Of a stretch of 31,247 bases of DNA, positions 23,916 through 30,998 are shown piece after piece (position 1 is the first letter of the stretch; each line of letters begins with the position of its first letter). Source of the DNA: Candidatus Heimdallarchaeota archaeon (GTDB lineage: Archaea > Asgardarchaeota > Heimdallarchaeia > Heimdallarchaeales > Heimdallarchaeaceae); the NCBI GenBank assembly GCA_030668875.1, contig DAOVER010000032.1:1-31247 (forward strand), in the 5' to 3' direction. Position numbers and translations under genes: made by a program. The notes beneath the pieces were generated by a model, which worked only from the letters and a program-made list of their open reading frames with translations, did not search any database and had not been told where the DNA came from.

Positions 23916-25832
23916 TTGAATGATACAACTCCAAAGTATAAAGGGTATAGAAATCAGGTTTTGGTTATAGATTTAACAAAAAATAAAATTGAAAAAAAGG
24001 TGCTAGACCTCTCTCTTGTTGAAAATTATCTAGGTGGACGAGGTATAGCGATCAAATATCTTTTTGATAATCTTGAACAAGGTATTGATCCGCTTAGCCC
24101 TGAAAACATTCTTGTAATAGGCACAGGTCCGCTTACAGGAACTTTGGCCCCATCTTCAAATCGCTATACTATTGCAGCGAAATCCCCGTTAACTGGAGGA
24201 ATAGGTTATGCAAACGCAGGTGGTCATTTTGCTCCTGAGCTAGCTTACGCTGGTTATGACGCTATTTTCATCCATGGAAAAGCAGAGACACCCGTATATA
24301 TTCAAATTGAGGATGATATTGTTAAGATTCAAGATGCTCAACATCTCTGGGGAAAAGATGTTTGGGAGACAGATGAGTATTTTAGAGAAAAACTTGGGGA
24401 ACAAATACAAATCTTATCTATTGGTCAAGGAGGAGAAAATCTTGTCCGTTATGCTGCTATTCTAAACAACCTCTCCCGGGCAGCTGCAAGAACAGGTGTT
24501 GGAGCTGTGATGGGTTCCAAAAATCTTAAAGCAATAACAGTTCAAGGCACAGGTGTTGTAGAAGTTAATGAAGCTGATAAGTTTGACGAATTAATTGATG
24601 AAACCTTAGAGAAAATATATGCTGATCCTGCTTACCCTAGTTTATCATATTATGGGACATCTTTTCTCGTAGATCTTGCATTTATAAGTGGTGGATTATC
24701 TACGAGGAATCACCAAACAGGAATTTTTGAACACTATGAAGAGATATCAGCAGAAGCCTTTGATGAAAAATATAGAATAAAATCTGAAAGTTGTTTTGCA
24801 TGTCCAATTCATTGTGGAAAATACTCCAAAGTAACTACAGGAAAATATGCAGGTACAAAAGGAGGCAGCCCTGAATATGAAACAGTCGTTTGTTTAGGCT
24901 CCAAGTGTGGTGTAGGGAATCTTGCTGCAATACATCATGCAAATGAACTTTGTAATAAATATGGTATAGACACTATTTCTACAGGAGATGTCATTGCTTT
25001 TGCAATGGAAGCATATGAAAAGGGAGTGTTGACAAAAGAAGATACTGATGGATTGGAACTTGAATGGGGAAATGAGGATACAATGATAGAGCTGATAAAA
25101 AAAATCGCTCATAGAGATGGTGTAGGTGATTTACTAGCAGAAGGATCCAAGAGAATAGCAGCAAAAATCAATAAAGGTTCTGAAGATTATGCTCATCATA
25201 TAAAGGGGATGGAACCACCTGCATACGATGTAAGAACAGCTAAAGCATTTGGATTGGGATGGGCTACAGCTACAAGAGGAGCAGACCATTTAGCTGCTTT
25301 ACCAAATTTCGAACTACTCGGATACGAACCTGAAATTGGTGTTGAGTGGTTCGGATCAGAAAAGGCAGTTGATCCCCATGCGTGGGAAAGTAAACCTCGT
25401 ATGGTAGTCTGGCATGAAAACTTAGGTGCTATTGTAGATTCAGCTGAAATGTGTAAATACACCTGTTTCTCAGCATATGCTGTGAAACCAGAAGATATGG
25501 CTAGATTTATTGCATATAGTACAGGGATGGATATGAATGCTGAGAATCTTATGAGGATAGGAGAAAGAATCTACAATTTAGAAAGATTGTTCAATTTAAG
25601 AGAAGGGATAGGAAAAGATCAAGATAGATTACCAAAAAGATTTACTGATGAGCCTCTACCAGAAGGTCCTGCTAAAGGGCAAGTTGTAGAACTGGATAAA
25701 ATGTTGCCTGATTATTATAAACTCCGAGGATGGAATTGGGAAACAGGATATCCTACAAAAGAGAAATTGCAGGAACTTGGATTGTTAGAAGAAGCAGAGA
25801 AGTATAATTTAGTATCAAGGGGGAATGAATGA
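23916..25832 (+). CDS. aor: Tungsten-dependent aldehyde:ferredoxin oxidoreductase family, catalytic subunit
   Basis: YLGGRG, KSPLTGG, GAVMGSKNLKAI, CFACPIHC (CxxCxxxC), PEYET, YGIDTISTG, TRGADH, DSAEMCKY, DRLPKRF. TTG start; TATA-like TTTATAT about 26 nt upstream. Confidence 0.93.
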   Translation: MNDTTPKYKGYRNQVLVIDLTKNKIEKKVLDLSLVENYLGGRGIAIKYLFDNLEQGIDPLSPENILVIGTGPLTGTLAPSSNRYTIAAKSPLTGGIGYANAGGHFAPELAYAGYDAIFIHGKAETPVYIQIEDDIVKIQDAQHLWGKDVWETDEYFREKLGEQIQILSIGQGGENLVRYAAILNNLSRAAARTGVGAVMGSKNLKAITVQGTGVVEVNEADKFDELIDETLEKIYADPAYPSLSYYGTSFLVDLAFISGGLSTRNHQTGIFEHYEEISAEAFDEKYRIKSESCFACPIHCGKYSKVTTGKYAGTKGGSPEYETVVCLGSKCGVGNLAAIHHANELCNKYGIDTISTGDVIAFAMEAYEKGVLTKEDTDGLELEWGNEDTMIELIKKIAHRDGVGDLLAEGSKRIAAKINKGSEDYAHHIKGMEPPAYDVRTAKAFGLGWATATRGADHLAALPNFELLGYEPEIGVEWFGSEKAVDPHAWESKPRMVVWHENLGAIVDSAEMCKYTCFSAYAVKPEDMARFIAYSTGMDMNAENLMRIGERIYNLERLFNLREGIGKDQDRLPKRFTDEPLPEGPAKGQVVELDKMLPDYYKLRGWNWETGYPTKEKLQELGLLEEAEKYNLVSRGNE

Positions 25833-26329
25833 TGACTGAACAACTTGTCAAGAGACGTATCTTTGCACAAAAGGAAAAGTGTAATGGATGTCGAATATGT
25901 GAATTGAGATGCTCATTTTATCATGAAAAACTATATGCTCCATCACATTCTAGAATTAGGGTAAAAAAGGTAGAAATAGAAGGGACAACCATCCCTGAAA
26001 CTTGTAGGTTATGCTATAAGTGCATTGAATCATGCCCAGAAGGTGCAATATCAAAGTCAGAGATAACAGGGGCGATACAAATTGATGAACAGAAATGTAC
26101 TGGTTGTGAAGAGTGTGTGAAAGCTTGTCCTTTTGGAGTTATGCACATGCATCCAGTTTCTAATATTGCCATGACTTGTGATCTATGCGATGGAGACCCT
26201 CAATGCGTGAGATATTGCCCTGAAGAAGCTTTACATTATATGACAGCCAAAGAATTTGTTGAATTTAGGAAAAAAGAAAAAGAAAATATTGAAGCTGGTC
26301 GAATTCCAAAGCATTCCCCAATACCATAG
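25829..26329 (+). CDS. Multi-[4Fe-4S] ferredoxin-like subunit (DmsB/CooF/AorA type)
   Basis: Four Cys clusters (CNGCRICELRC, CRLCYKCIESCP, CTGCEECVKACP, CDLCDGDPQCVRYCP); ATGA overlap with the aor stop. Confidence 0.92.
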   Translation: MMTEQLVKRRIFAQKEKCNGCRICELRCSFYHEKLYAPSHSRIRVKKVEIEGTTIPETCRLCYKCIESCPEGAISKSEITGAIQIDEQKCTGCEECVKACPFGVMHMHPVSNIAMTCDLCDGDPQCVRYCPEEALHYMTAKEFVEFRKKEKENIEAGRIPKHSPIP

Positions 26330-26344
26330 TGAAAAATAATCTTT

Positions 26345-26557
26345 CTACCCACCAGCTATTGCTGGCATAAGTACAAACATGTCGTCATCTTTTAATTTTG
26401 TTTGAAACCCATCCAGTAAATTGATGTTTCTTCCATTCACAATGATTCGGTAGAAAGATCTTATTTTTCCTAATTCATCAAACAATTCATCCCTCAACTC
26501 TTTACCATATTCCGTAAAAAGTTTATCAAGCAAATCCTCCACAGATTCAGCTTCCAT
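26345..26557 (-). CDS. moaD: MoaD/ThiS/SAMP ubiquitin-like sulfur carrier; 5' end uncertain or damaged
   Basis: RIIVNGRNI...TKLKDDD...PAIAGG C-terminal di-Gly. The frame continues upstream without ATG to 26617 (QKFIITFANIKKIIGKKQFI) and is then closed by TGA inside the left inverted repeat. Confidence 0.8.
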   Translation of the reverse strand: MEAESVEDLLDKLFTEYGKELRDELFDELGKIRSFYRIIVNGRNINLLDGFQTKLKDDDMFVLMPAIAGG

Positions 26558-26598
26558 TATGAACTGTTTTTTACCTATTATTTTCTTGATATTAGCAA

Positions 26599-26633
26599 AA
26601 GTTATAATAAATTTTTGTCATGTTGTCATATTA
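26599..26633 (-). repeat. Left inverted repeat of the tnpB element
   Basis: Minus strand TAATATGACAACATGACAAAAATTTATTATAACTT; 30/35 identical to 28009-28043, and the inner 22 nt are 21/22 identical. Confidence 0.85.
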
Positions 26634-26714
26634 ACTACCATTATATCAGTTTAAATGGACAGTCTTGAGTAAATATTACGGGAGTTTTTATAAGAATCTC
26701 TAGGTAAAGAAGAG

Positions 26715-27963
26715 ATGACGAAAGTTCCTAGGGTGGAATGTATAGAAGTAAAGTATCAGCCTAGTTTAAGCAAGATTTGTCATCAAGTAAAAAATCTCTA
26801 TAATCGAGCGAATTTTCTGATAAAAACCTCCCTGAACAAACAGAACAAGCTCCTCTTTTACAATGATCTCAACAAGCTACTCAACCATGAGGAATGCTAC
26901 CGTGTTCTTCCTGCTCACACTGCCCAACATACCCTCAAACTCCTCACTCGAAACTGGAGAGGGTATTTTCGAGCAATGAAAGAATGGAAAGCCAACCCTG
27001 GAGATTTTTTCTCAATGCCCCACCCACCTAATTACAAAAAAAAGGATGGGGAAGTGGTAGCTATCTTCACTAACCAACAAGCGAGGATTGTTAATGGATG
27101 GTTGGTTTTGCCGAAAAAAGTGGGATACACCTACAAAACACGGTTGACCTCCCATACTGATTTACGAGAGGTGAGAATTATTCCAAGAAGAGTAGGGTAT
27201 ACCCTAGAATTAGTCTATCAGAAAACCTTACCTAAACTCCGCAAAAAATTGATAAGAAAGGGGGGGGTAGATTTAGGGATGATCAACCTTGCCACCTTTG
27301 TGGATAACCTCGGTGGGCAACCGATTGTTATCAAAGATGTAGGAAAAGGGATAAAATCCATAACACAATATTATTTGAAGAAACAGAAACAATTGCAGAT
27401 ACAATATGCTCAACAGCAAAGACAAAAACTGAAAGGAAGGAACCGATTGACCTATGGTCATACCTACTACAAACTCCGAGAAAAGTGGAGGAGGAAACTG
27501 AAAGACGCTATCCACAAGCTCACCTGCTATTTTGGTTGACTTGTGGGAGGAAAGAGGGCTACACGAGGTTATCATCGGTTATAATGAGAAGTGGAAACAA
27601 GGGGTGCAGTTCTGGAAGAAGATCACCCAGATGTTCGTCACCATACCCTTTCTACGTATCATCAACATCTTGAAGTATAAGGGAGCAGAGCGAGGGATAA
27701 AGGTAGAGATGATTCCCGAAGAATACACTTCCAAGTGTAGTTTCCTTGACAATGAATTCCCCAAAGAACGGAAAAGGTACAAGGGAAAAAGGATCCACCG
27801 AGGGTTGTTTCGTTCTGCTCAAGGCCACTTGATCAATGCTGATGTTAATGCTGCGTATAATATTCTGATAAAAAGCGATCCGAAAGCTTTGTCTAAACGC
27901 AAGGTGAACGGGGTAGGAGGATACGTAATGTATCCACAGAGAGTGAGTATAGAACTGTTATAG
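26715..27963 (+). pseudogene. tnpB: TnpB RNA-guided endonuclease, split by a +1 frameshift
   Basis: CHQVKNLYNRANF, GGVDLGMINL (RuvC-I), IPEEYTSKCSFLD, RGLFRS, NADVNAAYNI (RuvC-III). Extra T in the T4 run at 27530-27533 splits ORFs 26715-27539 and 27532-27963. Confidence 0.92.
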
Positions 27964-28008
27964 TACTATATGTTGACCTCTAATAAAGACACTCGACTAA
28001 AGTTGTCC

Positions 28009-28043
28009 TAATATGACAACAAGACAAAAACTCATCATGACTT
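28009..28043 (+). repeat. Right inverted repeat of the tnpB element
   Basis: TAATATGACAACAAGACAAAAACTCATCATGACTT; overlaps the hairpin GTTGTC-N7-GACAAC (28002-28020). Confidence 0.85.
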
Positions 28044-28178
28044 GGATTATACTCGTTGCTACACTAAGATACTACTGTTTCAAAAAATTTACTCTTCAAT
28101 AAATGGAAAACATATACCTAACTTCCGTTAGAGTAATGATACCAAATAATTTATGAATTTGGAAAGAGAGTCTACCTC

Positions 28179-29216
28179 ATGTCCTTCGAAATCGTAGATA
28201 TTGAACCTCTTTCTGAAAAGGATGAACTGCTTAATCTATATCTTGATTTAGATGACAAAATCAGAAGAGAGTATTTTCCTAAAGACCCAATTACCCCCCG
28301 TGGAGTCTCATTGGAAAAGATTAAGCAACAAATTCCAGGTATTTTATATTTTAGAAAAGCCATTCTAGATCAACAGAGAAACATTATAATCGCTAGGCTC
28401 ATTTTGAAAATGTTTACAAAAAAGCATCAAGAGTATCATAGCAACAAGCACATCGCTGCACTGGATATCAATGTAATTAGGGAATATCGGGATGAAAAAT
28501 ATGCTGACATATTATTCAAGGAAGCAATTAAGATCATTAAGAAGTATAAGGACATCTCTATAGTTGAAGGATGCTGCATCTGGCAACAAGAGTGGGAAAT
28601 GTGGCAAAAACATGGAGCAAAGGAGACATATTCAGCTGATGTAAATCGAGTATATCTGGACGAAATTGATTGGGATATGATGAATGATTGGAGAGAAAAA
28701 GGGCTAGAAAGAGCTAAAGCTGAGGAGATTACACTTGAGATTTTTGAGAACTGTCCAGAAGAAATTATAGACGAGTATACAACTCTCTATTATGAAATAT
28801 TAACATTAGTACCTTGGGGTGACATTGAATGGTCACCTCCTGAAGAGACACCAGAATACAGAAGAATCAAGGAAGAAAGACATGCAAAGATGGGTGAAAA
28901 GTGGTACACAATTATCACTAAAGAAAAAGATGGCAAGATAAGTGGATTAACAGAAATCCTCTATGATCCTAAGGATGATTACTGGGTTCATCAACTGTTA
29001 ACAGGTGTTAAGCTAGAGTATAGGGATAGAGGTCTAGGAAAATGGTTGAAGACTGAGATATTATCTTTCATCCAGGAAAAGTTACCAAAAGTCATCTTGT
29101 TGCATACTGGTAATGCGGAAGTTAATGCGCCCATGCTTTCGATTAATGAACGAATAGGTTTTAAGAGATATCTAACAGACAAGTGTTTTACAGTTAAATT
29201 AGAAAAAATAGTATGA
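28179..29216 (+). CDS. Tandem-domain GNAT N-acetyltransferase (paralog 2)
   Basis: TGVKLEYRDRGLGKWLK and TGNAEVNAPMLSINERIGF; colinear with 21341-22390 from MSFEI onward. Confidence 0.88.
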   Translation: MSFEIVDIEPLSEKDELLNLYLDLDDKIRREYFPKDPITPRGVSLEKIKQQIPGILYFRKAILDQQRNIIIARLILKMFTKKHQEYHSNKHIAALDINVIREYRDEKYADILFKEAIKIIKKYKDISIVEGCCIWQQEWEMWQKHGAKETYSADVNRVYLDEIDWDMMNDWREKGLERAKAEEITLEIFENCPEEIIDEYTTLYYEILTLVPWGDIEWSPPEETPEYRRIKEERHAKMGEKWYTIITKEKDGKISGLTEILYDPKDDYWVHQLLTGVKLEYRDRGLGKWLKTEILSFIQEKLPKVILLHTGNAEVNAPMLSINERIGFKRYLTDKCFTVKLEKIV

Positions 29217-29291: not shown

Positions 29292-30998
29292 TTATTCTTC
29301 ATCATCTTCTTCTTGGATCTTATCTTTGAGCTCTTTTAATTCATTTTTCAAATCGATTATATCTTCCTTTAAATTGCTCATTTCATTATCTAAATCTCGA
29401 ATCTCTTTGGTGATTCTGCTAGCTTTCTTAAAATCATCTTCTGATTCAATTTGGCTAAGCATAGTTTTTTGTATGTTTAATTCTGTTTCTAATTCTCTAT
29501 ACAAAGTCTCTAATTTTTTATCCTTTAGAACAATTTCTTCCTGTGTTCTCTCTAACCTTCCTCTCTCTTTCTTAGATTTCTTGATAAGTTCAAGAAGCTC
29601 GTTGTGACATTTCTCAAGAGCTTCTTTATTGGTTTTAGAATTATCCCGACAATCACCAATATCTTCATCTATTTTTTCTAGCTCTTTTTCATGTTTCTTT
29701 ATTTTCTTCTCGTCAGTTTCTGTTGCTAGGAAGGTTTTAATCTCTTTCATTTCTCGCTCTTTTTCTTTGATATCTGTTTTTAATTCAGCTATGTCTTCTT
29801 TGTATTTTTGCTTAGTTTTGGTATACTTCTCAATATCTTTCTCAAAATCCTCGATTTTCTTCTCAAATTCCTTTAGCTCTTTATTCTTATCTGAGGATGT
29901 GAGTTTTATCTCTTCGATTTGATTATTAAGAGCGAGTATTTCCTGTTCAATTTGAGCGAATTTATCAAAATCTTCTTTAATATCAACAATCTCTTTCAGA
30001 TTCTTTTCCTTTTCTAGCTTGATTTCTAACTCTTTGTATTTGTCTTGTATTTGAAGGTCTATATGATGGATTTCAGTTTCAACGCTTGTAATCCTACTTT
30101 TGTCAGTTTCTAGCTTTTGTTTAAGATTATCAAGTTCTAACTTTATGTCTTGAACTTTTTGTTCTGCAATCTCAGACTTCTCTGTAATTTCTTTAGTTTC
30201 TGCAATTAGAATTTGAATTTTAGATTCATCCTTTTCTTCTTCAGGAGAATTTTCTAATGTTTGTCTCTTTTTATTATTTTCACGTAAAGTTCTGTTCAAA
30301 TCCCTAACAGTATCTTGTTTGATTTTAACCTCTTTAGACACCAACTCAATTCTTTCCTCTTCAAGAACAAGTTTATCTTTGATTTGTGATATTTCTTCTA
30401 CTGACTGTTCTTTTTCAACCTCTAATTTTTTGATACCATCTGTTAATTCACGAATTTCTAACTCTATTTTTTCTATATTTGATATATCAGATTTGGATGC
30501 GCCTAATAGAGTTTGAAGTTCTTTCTGTTTCTCTAATTTCTCATCCATGTTTTCATAGAGATGCTTTAAGTCTCTATCCTTTCTTCGAATATTTCGTTCG
30601 ATCAAATCCATTTGACCTATATCTATTAGTTTCTCAATTTTTGTGACATACTTCTGGATGGTGTTGATTTGTAGTTCTCCATCGACAACAAGTTTTCTGA
30701 AAAACAATGCCAAATTAGAGTTTTCACCTAGTTTTAAAATAAGAACGTCAACACTTTCAGTATCGAATAATAGCTGATTATAATTTTTGAAATCATAATT
30801 ACAAACCTCATAGAGTTTTTTAAAGCTAGAAAGAATATCAGCTAAATCATCACCTAGTTTTGGTATGTTTACCGATTCTTCAAATTGTTCGAAAGTGGTT
30901 TGAAAAACAGTTCCATCGTCGAAAAACATAGCTATGTGTTCAACTTCTGGGAGTGCTTTTCTTATTCTATCTATTGTTTTTTGTACCATTTTTTTCAC
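29292..30998 (-). CDS. Roadblock/LC7(MglB)-like N-terminal domain fused to a ~440-aa repetitive coiled coil
   Basis: N-terminal about 125 aa with alpha-beta-beta-alpha-beta-beta-beta-alpha pattern (RIRKALPEVEHIAMFFDDGTVF...QLLFDT..VDVLILKLGENSNLALFF), then continuous E/K-rich heptads. No Walker motifs. Start is GTG 30998 or ATG 30989. Confidence 0.7.
   Translation of the reverse strand: MKKMVQKTIDRIRKALPEVEHIAMFFDDGTVFQTTFEQFEESVNIPKLGDDLADILSSFKKLYEVCNYDFKNYNQLLFDTESVDVLILKLGENSNLALFFRKLVVDGELQINTIQKYVTKIEKLIDIGQMDLIERNIRRKDRDLKHLYENMDEKLEKQKELQTLLGASKSDISNIEKIELEIRELTDGIKKLEVEKEQSVEEISQIKDKLVLEEERIELVSKEVKIKQDTVRDLNRTLRENNKKRQTLENSPEEEKDESKIQILIAETKEITEKSEIAEQKVQDIKLELDNLKQKLETDKSRITSVETEIHHIDLQIQDKYKELEIKLEKEKNLKEIVDIKEDFDKFAQIEQEILALNNQIEEIKLTSSDKNKELKEFEKKIEDFEKDIEKYTKTKQKYKEDIAELKTDIKEKEREMKEIKTFLATETDEKKIKKHEKELEKIDEDIGDCRDNSKTNKEALEKCHNELLELIKKSKKERGRLERTQEEIVLKDKKLETLYRELETELNIQKTMLSQIESEDDFKKASRITKEIRDLDNEMSNLKEDIIDLKNELKELKDKIQEEDDEE

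Follow-up and report, generated by a model that had tools for sequence, protein, structure and literature searches.

In this study, we analysed a 31,247-nt stretch of DNA from a Candidatus Heimdallarchaeota archaeon (assembly GCA_030668875.1, contig DAOVER010000032.1, positions 1 to 31,247), hereafter the window, and found that it carries a 1433-bp insertion around tnpB at 26606..28038 on the + strand. We put the probability at roughly 0.6 that this element is a transposase-less, non-autonomous derivative of the IS607 lineage, which is moved in trans by a putative serine-recombinase-type enzyme. It is best filed as an element that works like IS607 yet is not a full member of that family, because tnpA is missing. 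The initial annotation, made from the sequence alone, had described a tnpB-only element bounded by 35-bp inverted repeats and had offered two readings, a non-autonomous IS607-like element or a TnpB captured by a transposon with terminal inverted repeats (TIR). The former is supported by the lack of a target-site duplication, the AT shared by both junctions, arms composed of direct repeats, a conserved motif at the left junction, and the linkage of outgroup TnpBs to IS607.

The inverted pair at 26599-26633 and 28009-28043 is 35 nt long and is complementary at 30 of the 35 positions (86%) in a repeat search. The next-best inverted pairs in 26000-28600 are 18-21 nt long and 71-83% complementary, so that the main pair is by far the best in the region and the repeat first noticed is real. 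The GAC units at an 8-nt period described with it are also present, at 28015-17 and 28023-25, with mirror GTC at 26617-19 and 26625-27. The exact borders came from end alignments and from empty sites, which had been proposed as a check. In three congeners (G002, G010 and G016), the ThiS-like gene and the GNAT acetyltransferase gene are adjacent, and the site between them reads ...GCAAAAG-TTAT-GAC... (left flanks 86-93% identical), where the window has ...GCAAAAG-TTAT-(1433 bp)-GAC.... Comparison of the empty and filled sites therefore defines a 1433-bp insertion directly 3' of TTAT without duplication. The junctions are TTAT/AATAAA (26605/26606) and CATCAT/GAC (28038/28039). Because these are the true junctions, AAG at 26599-26601 and GACTT at 28039-28043, including GAC at 28039-41, are host DNA that matches by chance; the third GAC unit and the outermost bases of the repeat, which the initial annotation had counted in, thus fall outside the element. 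The host motif TTAT (26602..26605, + strand) is kept in the empty sites. It is the predicted transposon-adjacent motif (TAM), and the AT with which it closes is the putative crossover dinucleotide. Since both the element and the target end in AT, the two are indistinguishable and the cut may lie before or after this dinucleotide, which means that the borders can be shifted by 2 nt and that the junction is readable as a 0-bp or a 2-bp duplication. The earlier statement that there is no duplication holds in so far as the empty sites show none, and is to be qualified by this ambiguous AT.

The same ends recur throughout the window's own genome (3.23 Mb, 99 contigs, 92% complete), which contains about 25-40 copies; more are present in other Heimdallarchaeota. 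BLAST with window positions 26560-28100 as the query gave 41 matches in this genome (66-100% identity, many at contig ends). A profile of the arm matched 53 genomic sites, nearly all of which are found at a spacing of ~1.43 kb around tnpB or at contig ends, so that the repeat did not arise by coincidence. Complete arm pairs lie ~1.36-1.44 kb apart around tnpB, and the remainder are contig-end copies, a mini element on contig C36 and a few solo right-end remnants. The arm pairs enclose tnpB alone with the mini element (71 bp) as the sole exception, and no pair contains another gene. In the mini element (C36:29953-30023, 71 nt), the left end is fused to the last ~15 nt of a right end, with TTAT and CATCAT at its borders. 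When 11 left and 19 right ends of this genome were aligned, all left junctions read nTAT/(A/G)A... and all right ends TCAT, with the sequences diverging beyond the borders, and AT stands at both junctions in all copies examined. The comparison of copies thus placed the junctions to the base and gave AT as the core. The left end of the copy on C5 is 100% identical to that of the window over 119 nt and has a different flank, which suggests that the element moved very recently. The element is polymorphic between species. The family is present in at least 24 of the 30 sampled genomes of the archaeal family; G009 (18 matches) and G011 (17) are rich in copies. A metagenome scan with P0001, an intact TnpB of the family, found only four loci, all tnpB-only, and a scan of viral contigs found none.

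These data bear on the question whether the repeats are transcription-factor sites or promoter elements. The left arm starts with AT-rich, TATA-like sequence and the insertion lies in a divergent intergenic region, as such sites might. This explanation has practically no chance of being correct, because the whole 1433 bp is absent at the orthologous sites of three relatives, and these empty sites refute it. In addition, the conserved promoter-like box is situated deeper within the insertion. Two patterns that the initial annotation had named as damaging to its proposal, a repeat found at many promoters that lack tnpB and further copies of the gene that lack the repeat, were not what we saw: the arm profile falls almost only at the ends of tnpB copies, and the copies in this genome and in relatives carry the arms.

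Both ends follow a common plan. From the outside in, it consists of AT, 6 nt, TTTTTGTC(A/T)T, nTTGTCAT and ATTA, and the 6-nt spacer and the positions of the units are identical at the two ends. In the window, the left inverted arm (26604..26635, + strand), identified by the repeat search and a profile match and kept in relatives, is composed of AT, 6 nt, two 8-bp units and ATTA. The units TTTGTCAT and GTTGTCAT stand in tandem at 26614..26629 (+ strand) and are also seen in an alignment of 34 left ends. The right inverted arm (28007..28038, + strand; profile match 28038-28007) is composed of TAAT, ATGACAAC, AAGACAAA and 6 nt plus AT. Its terminal TCAT (28035..28038, + strand) differs from the TAM TTAT only at -3. 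The left ends are more variable in the first 8 nt. The right ends read ATCAT in all copies examined (19/19 in the own genome and the related ends read) and CATCAT in nearly all, the exceptions being ...AATCAT on C59 and ...TTATCAT in locus L044. A weaker third unit of the type TCAnnTTAA was found in the 34-sequence alignment at the left end (26645-26655), ~20 nt further in. The arms within one element are slightly more alike than those of different elements (21.0 versus 19.95 of 34; permutation p ~0.001), which is only indicative as the copies are related. A solo right-end remnant in the own genome (C56:19243-19330) carries the 8-bp unit GACAAGAA three times, where it normally occurs twice, so the number of units can change.

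The target preference was reconstructed from 25 complete elements, 6 from the own genome and 19 from relatives. The targets read A, A/T, T (20/25), T (25), A (25), T (25) before the junction and R, A (15/25) after it. The preference is one-sided: T occupies -3 in all 25 targets and A the mirror position +1 in only 10/25. Palindromy around AT is weak (17/25 at +/-2 and 10/25 at +/-1), and the near-palindrome at the window's own target is therefore mostly chance. This one-sidedness speaks against the second reading of the initial annotation, according to which the TnpB sits in a classical TIR transposon whose 30-bp repeats are bound by a DDE transposase from elsewhere, with a 2-bp duplication of AT. 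Symmetric arms that extend to the termini, an AT on both sides that is formally readable as a 2-bp duplication, and the existence of described DDE-linked TnpBs with inverted terminal repeats (PMC10691335) all favour such a capture. It is nevertheless unlikely. The complete arm pairs in the genome hold no other gene beside tnpB (the mini element apart), there is no duplication beyond AT, the TnpB lineage is associated with IS607, and no autonomous partner was found in 79 loci with family copies, the DDE families of the own genome not having been searched one by one.

The IS607 association comes from the closest relatives of the TnpB. We searched 1.84 billion cluster representatives, obtained 592 clusters at E <= 1e-30, and inspected seven of the nearest of these 50%-identity clusters. 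Two of them, P0123 (46% identity) and P0134 (43%), lie directly behind, abutting or overlapping, genes for proteins of 195-198 amino acids with an N-terminal helix-turn-helix (HTH) and a resolvase domain. In the other five, one has a small HTH remnant upstream and four are solo; no Y1 neighbour was found among the seven. Taken together, the closest outgroup TnpBs, at 37-46% identity, have an IS607-type serine transposase gene immediately in front of them. Homologues of this outgroup TnpA are annotated as IS607 family transposases in Methanoperedens and Thermoplasmatota, and for one homologue of the family the source itself gives the annotation 'IS607 family transposase ISTvo1'. At a cut-off of E <= 1e-25, the outgroup-type TnpA occurs in 29 of the 399 genomes of the phylum. 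A full-length TnpB that is 32-43% identical to P0001 lies directly downstream in 10 of 15 Asgard loci with such a TnpA. The right ends of these TnpA-TnpB elements read ...GATAACCT after two tandem repeats of ~10 nt, so that the plan is alike and the sequence different. The P0310 contigs represent a single locus and were of no use for defining the ends of an autonomous relative.

The element itself can only be a non-autonomous derivative, because 1433 bp leaves no room for tnpA and none was found in the 79 family loci (368 kb), in which four types of tnpA were tested. The absence of tnpA noted at the outset thus extends to these 79 loci. It had also been suggested that autonomous copies would hold their transposase between the same repeats; the arm profile and the 79 loci yielded no such copy.

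The right end has a second conserved feature. In an alignment of 37 right ends, the last ~200 nt contain a near-invariant nucleotide block and recognisable stems. Identity at third codon positions is 0.84-0.87 in the last 30 codons of tnpB, compared with ~0.66 over most of the gene and 0.75-0.85 in codons 181-240. Judging from these patterns, this region looks like the scaffold of a TnpB omegaRNA. The predicted scaffold (27840..28038, + strand, 5' limit approximate) overlaps the 3' end of tnpB and ends at the right border; an Rfam scan of 26400-28300 returned no matching family. It includes the hairpin GTTGTC-N7-GACAAC at 28002..28020 (+ strand; 28002-28007 paired with 28015-28020), 18 nt from the right end; its 3' half coincides with the inner 8-bp unit of that arm. 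The hairpin covaries: 91.7% of the cells are paired and 13 have changed on both sides, none of 500 shuffles scored as high, and slid controls gave 31-59%. Its DNA fold has z = -2.2. The host DNA at 28039..28058 (+ strand) would template the guide, as suggested by the end of the scaffold and by the flanks, which diverge between copies exactly here; a guide length of ~16-20 nt is assumed by analogy with known TnpB systems.

A hairpin near the end raises the possibility that the element is an IS200/IS605-type element of the IS1341 group, which a Y1 (HUH) TnpA would move in trans as single-stranded DNA, with TTAT as the left cleavage and target site and TCAT as the right cleavage site. Insertion strictly 3' of a tetranucleotide without duplication, the covarying subterminal hairpin and the tnpB-only architecture would all agree with this, and the sister-genus genome G030 has both the TnpB family and an IS605 with a Y1 TnpA. 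However, the right hairpin is accounted for by the omegaRNA, whose scaffold includes the right arm. The left end forms no hairpin on either strand: it has no consensus structure (alifold energy 0.0) and its DNA folds like shuffled sequence (z = +0.16 and +0.6). No Y1 transposase (PF01797) was found in any of the 24 genomes of the genus, in which the family is nonetheless active, and both the controls and sister genera were positive. The outgroup TnpBs that have a transposase all have one of the serine type. The IS605 of G030 was rejected as a close relative, since its classic hairpin ends are unrelated to these arms and its TnpB, like the 638-amino-acid TnpB of the IS607 elements resident in the own genome, showed no significant similarity to P0001 by BLASTP. 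We thus consider transposition by a Y1 enzyme improbable.

If the mover is of the serine type, it might still come from outside the element's own lineage. Contigs C15, C48 and C87 of the own genome carry IS607-type tnpA genes, which encode a MerR HTH and a resolvase domain and are followed by the 638-amino-acid TnpB. These resident loci are located at C48:36122-38850, C87:1-2380 and C15:30720-31485 (L032, L035 and L031, respectively); the C15 copy is a tnpA-only derivative that has kept tnpA and the right end and lost tnpB. Genus-wide, the left junction of the resident IS607 is ACCGT in 8 of 9 copies and ACTGT in one, the right end is ...ACGTGCGT (GCGT), and AAACTT repeats occur at both ends. 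This is the same junction logic in different words, that is, a conserved motif at the left junction. There are also two small serine recombinases of 238-250 amino acids with an N-terminal resolvase domain and a C-terminus of no assigned family (C18:25768-26484 and C29:40645-41397; L033 and L034), one each in nearly every genome of the genus, with or without the TnpB family. A promiscuous resident IS607 TnpA or one of these two recombinases as the mover would fit the finding that a TnpA of the cognate type was not detected in the 29 genomes of the archaeal family. It would also fit the mean copy number, which is ~13 in genomes with an IS607-type tnpA and 5 in those without, a tendency only, as the genomes of the genus are incomplete metagenome-assembled genomes (MAGs) and not independent samples. 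On the other hand, there is no physical linkage: the arm profile matched none of the serine-recombinase loci of the genus and sister genera, save for a coincidental neighbour on C18 that lies outside the element. The small recombinases are also present in the family-free genomes G004, G013 and G017, and the resident IS607 has another motif at its ends. Such a mover is therefore doubtful. As a broader and tentative proposal, to which we give a rather low weight, the archaeal family may be spreading a TnpB-only element in the absence of a transposase of its own lineage, the AT-centred arms serving as docking sites for a small serine recombinase of the host or an unrelated IS607 transposase. If this is true, a guide-RNA nuclease element would be living off a foreign or domesticated recombinase. 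Cas1 was considered as the mover in view of casposons and Asgard Cas1-TnpB, and it was not found in the own genome. G030 has a third IS607-type element (L184 and L186, on G030:C9 and G030:C18), whose left junction carries GG and whose tnpA is interrupted by a stop codon; both contigs end at an identical base just after tnpA, and so the next sequence is probably a repeat.

Our preferred explanation, movement by a serine-recombinase-type transposase as in the IS607 lineage, can be put as follows. Each end would be a half-site for a recombinase that acts on double-stranded DNA, and the half-site would consist of the palindromic AT, 6 nt and two (on the left perhaps three) binding motifs of the TTGTCAT type. 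The enzyme, supplied in trans, would cut around AT at both ends and release a circle, whose junction would be a near-perfect palindrome of ~60 bp, and the donor would be resealed as TTAT plus flank. The circle would integrate at other (T)TAT sites. TnpB and its omegaRNA, with a scaffold ending in ...CAUCAU and a guide read from the right flank, would cleave the emptied TTAT plus flank, so that homologous repair would restore the element. At the right end, the C at -3 may protect occupied sites from TnpB, TCAT in place of TTAT providing discrimination of self from non-self.

Several findings weigh against this explanation. The outgroup-type TnpA was found in 0 of 29 genomes of the window's own archaeal family, and no serine transposase gene was found anywhere between or beside these ends. 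Where this element has TTGTCAT and AT, the ends recognised by the resident IS607 TnpA have AAACTT motifs and terminate in GT/CGT. In G009 and G011, which are incomplete MAGs with many copies, no IS607-type tnpA was found. No circle or tandem junction, and no other excision product, was detected by a regex search of the genome and all loci, that is, of assembled contigs. The core is AT and not the GG typical of IS607, and the arms, unlike published IS607 ends, are symmetric and extend to the termini. Finally, TTAT-specific insertion free of duplication fits IS200/IS605 equally well. Public sequencing runs were examined as Logan contigs only; these contigs break at the arms and give no joint across the element. 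Two short Logan contigs from a related strain stop at TTAT or start at ATGAC as an empty site would; this observation is weak and is not used as support.

The ends can be compared with those of characterised IS607 elements. IS607 ends have no terminal inverted repeats; they have an imperfect inverted repeat near the ends and short direct motifs bound by TnpA, with GG at both termini and in the target and no duplication (Chen et al. 2018, PMC6188088). In the clostridial (C. botulinum) IS607 IStron, TnpA integrates at TGGG, which is also the TAM of TnpB, and the right end, TCGG, is told apart from it at -3 (Zedaveinyte et al., bioRxiv 10.1101/2023.11.20.567912). The element resembles the IS607 family (H. 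pylori IS607, IS1535, ISC1926, the C. botulinum IStron and archaeal ISTvo1-like elements) in the absence of duplication and the dinucleotide shared by termini and target, in inverted arms of short direct repeats near the ends, in a left-junction motif of 4-5 nt that doubles as TAM with a right end differing at -3, and in tnpB with its omegaRNA at the right end, the nearest relatives of its TnpB standing behind IS607-type TnpA genes. Where the IStron has TGGG and TCGG, the element has TTAT as target and TCAT as right end, with AT as core. It differs from IS607 in that no serine TnpA with a MerR-like HTH and a resolvase domain lies upstream of tnpB, in its AT core, in arms that are symmetric and equidistant from the termini like true terminal inverted repeats, and in units that are 8 bp apart, whereas those of IS607 are helically phased at 9-10 bp. 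By analogy, the TTAT/TCAT pair mirrors the rule of self and non-self that was shown experimentally for a bacterial IS607, and this suggests that the rule is general.

Other groups share part of this organisation. The IS1341 group in archaea such as Haloquadratum and Natronomonas is alike in having tnpB alone in many diverged copies, in insertion at a fixed tetranucleotide without duplication, and in mobility without a visible transposase, a puzzle already noted for haloarchaea (PMC3119063). The element differs from that group in the missing left hairpin, in ends that are inverted repeats, in that searches of the genus found no Y1, and in a TnpB lineage tied to serine transposases. DDE-linked TnpBs (the IS630-linked branch DDE-6) and Fanzors in eukaryotic TIR transposons are alike in placing the nuclease between symmetric inverted ends; unlike them, the element has no DDE gene that we could find, no real duplication, a one-sided target and a TnpB of another lineage. 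Altae-Tran et al. described both DDE-linked TnpBs with inverted terminal repeats and solo TnpBs that share their ends with autonomous elements (2023, PMC10691335). With OMEGA systems (the TnpBs of ISDra2 and CboIStron, and RIIr-5-like clades), it shares the OrfB_IS605 and TNB domains, an invariant set of Asp, alternative Glu and Asp with Gly at the canonical Glu position, the NADxN motif, and a structured RNA that begins within the 3' part of the gene and stops at the transposon border. It differs from them in that its TnpB has lost three of the four Zn-ribbon cysteines and its RNA matches no Rfam model. TnpB-only elements far outnumber autonomous ones, and their continued movement is a standing puzzle. 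For its study this family is well suited, as it has base-exact borders, empty sites, simple symmetric ends of 8-bp units and a link to IS607, and the cognate transposase is apparently absent from the Asgard family. Its TnpB is also compact (415 amino acids), with the catalytic site rearranged and the Zn ribbon degenerate, and is predicted to use a T-rich TAM (TTAT).

The window's own tnpB is frameshifted, because it has one extra T compared with the intact 415-amino-acid copies, a point that the initial annotation had not raised. The 5' part (26715..27539, + strand, 274 codons) matches Pfam OrfB_IS605, contains the RuvC-I Asp in GVDLG, and is 91% identical to residues 1-276 of P0001. The extra T lies in a T-run at 27530..27533 (+ strand), as seen in a three-way alignment with the intact copies on C83 and C94. 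The 3' part continues in the +1 frame at 27532..27963 (+ strand), matches Pfam Cas12f1-like_TNB, and contains the alternative RuvC-II Glu, the degenerate Zn ribbon and the RuvC-III motif NADVN. In an alignment of 42 sequences of the family and the outgroup, D186, G288, N290, K294, E335 and D376 are invariant. G288 occupies the position of the canonical RuvC-II Glu, NADVN forms RuvC-III, and three of the four cysteines of the Zn ribbon are lost. In the RuvC-II rearranged type, the site is predicted to be completed by a glutamate at an alternative position (Altae-Tran et al. 2023, PMC10691335). By its residues, this TnpB is of that arrangement, with D186/E335/D376 as the predicted catalytic set. 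Similarity to solved structures is very weak, the best being to Cas12f (E = 0.005). Dozens of copies across genomes have open frames at 55-93% identity, and this points to selection on the TnpB protein. Some outgroup TnpBs, including P0122, P0131 and P0148, have an extra 100-120 residues at the N-terminus with one faint MazE-like match; either a fused domain or a wrongly called start codon may account for them.

A TATA-box-like sequence, TTTTTATAA, is located at 26685..26693 (+ strand), ~27 nt upstream of the tnpB ATG, and is nearly invariant in the aligned left ends. From what is generally known of archaeal promoters, TTTTTATAA is probably the tnpB promoter, and its distance from the ATG suggests a leaderless or near-leaderless mRNA.

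The element lies between two divergent genes. The ThiS/MoaD-like gene (26345-26557, - strand) starts 44 nt from the insertion, and the GNAT acetyltransferase gene (28179-29216, + strand) is on the other side of the intergenic region. The spacer without the insert is only ~190 bp, and so the insertion probably separates one or both of these genes from promoter elements. Further out, 29292-30998 (- strand) is an open reading frame of 568 amino acids, very rich in Glu and Lys and coiled-coil-like, with no Pfam match. On the other side, an aldehyde:ferredoxin oxidoreductase (AOR) gene (AFOR_N and AFOR_C, E = 1e-146) and then a poly-ferredoxin (4Fe-4S) gene occupy 23916-26329 (+ strand), followed by the convergent ThiS-like gene. 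This AOR cluster is ordinary and is kept in congeners.

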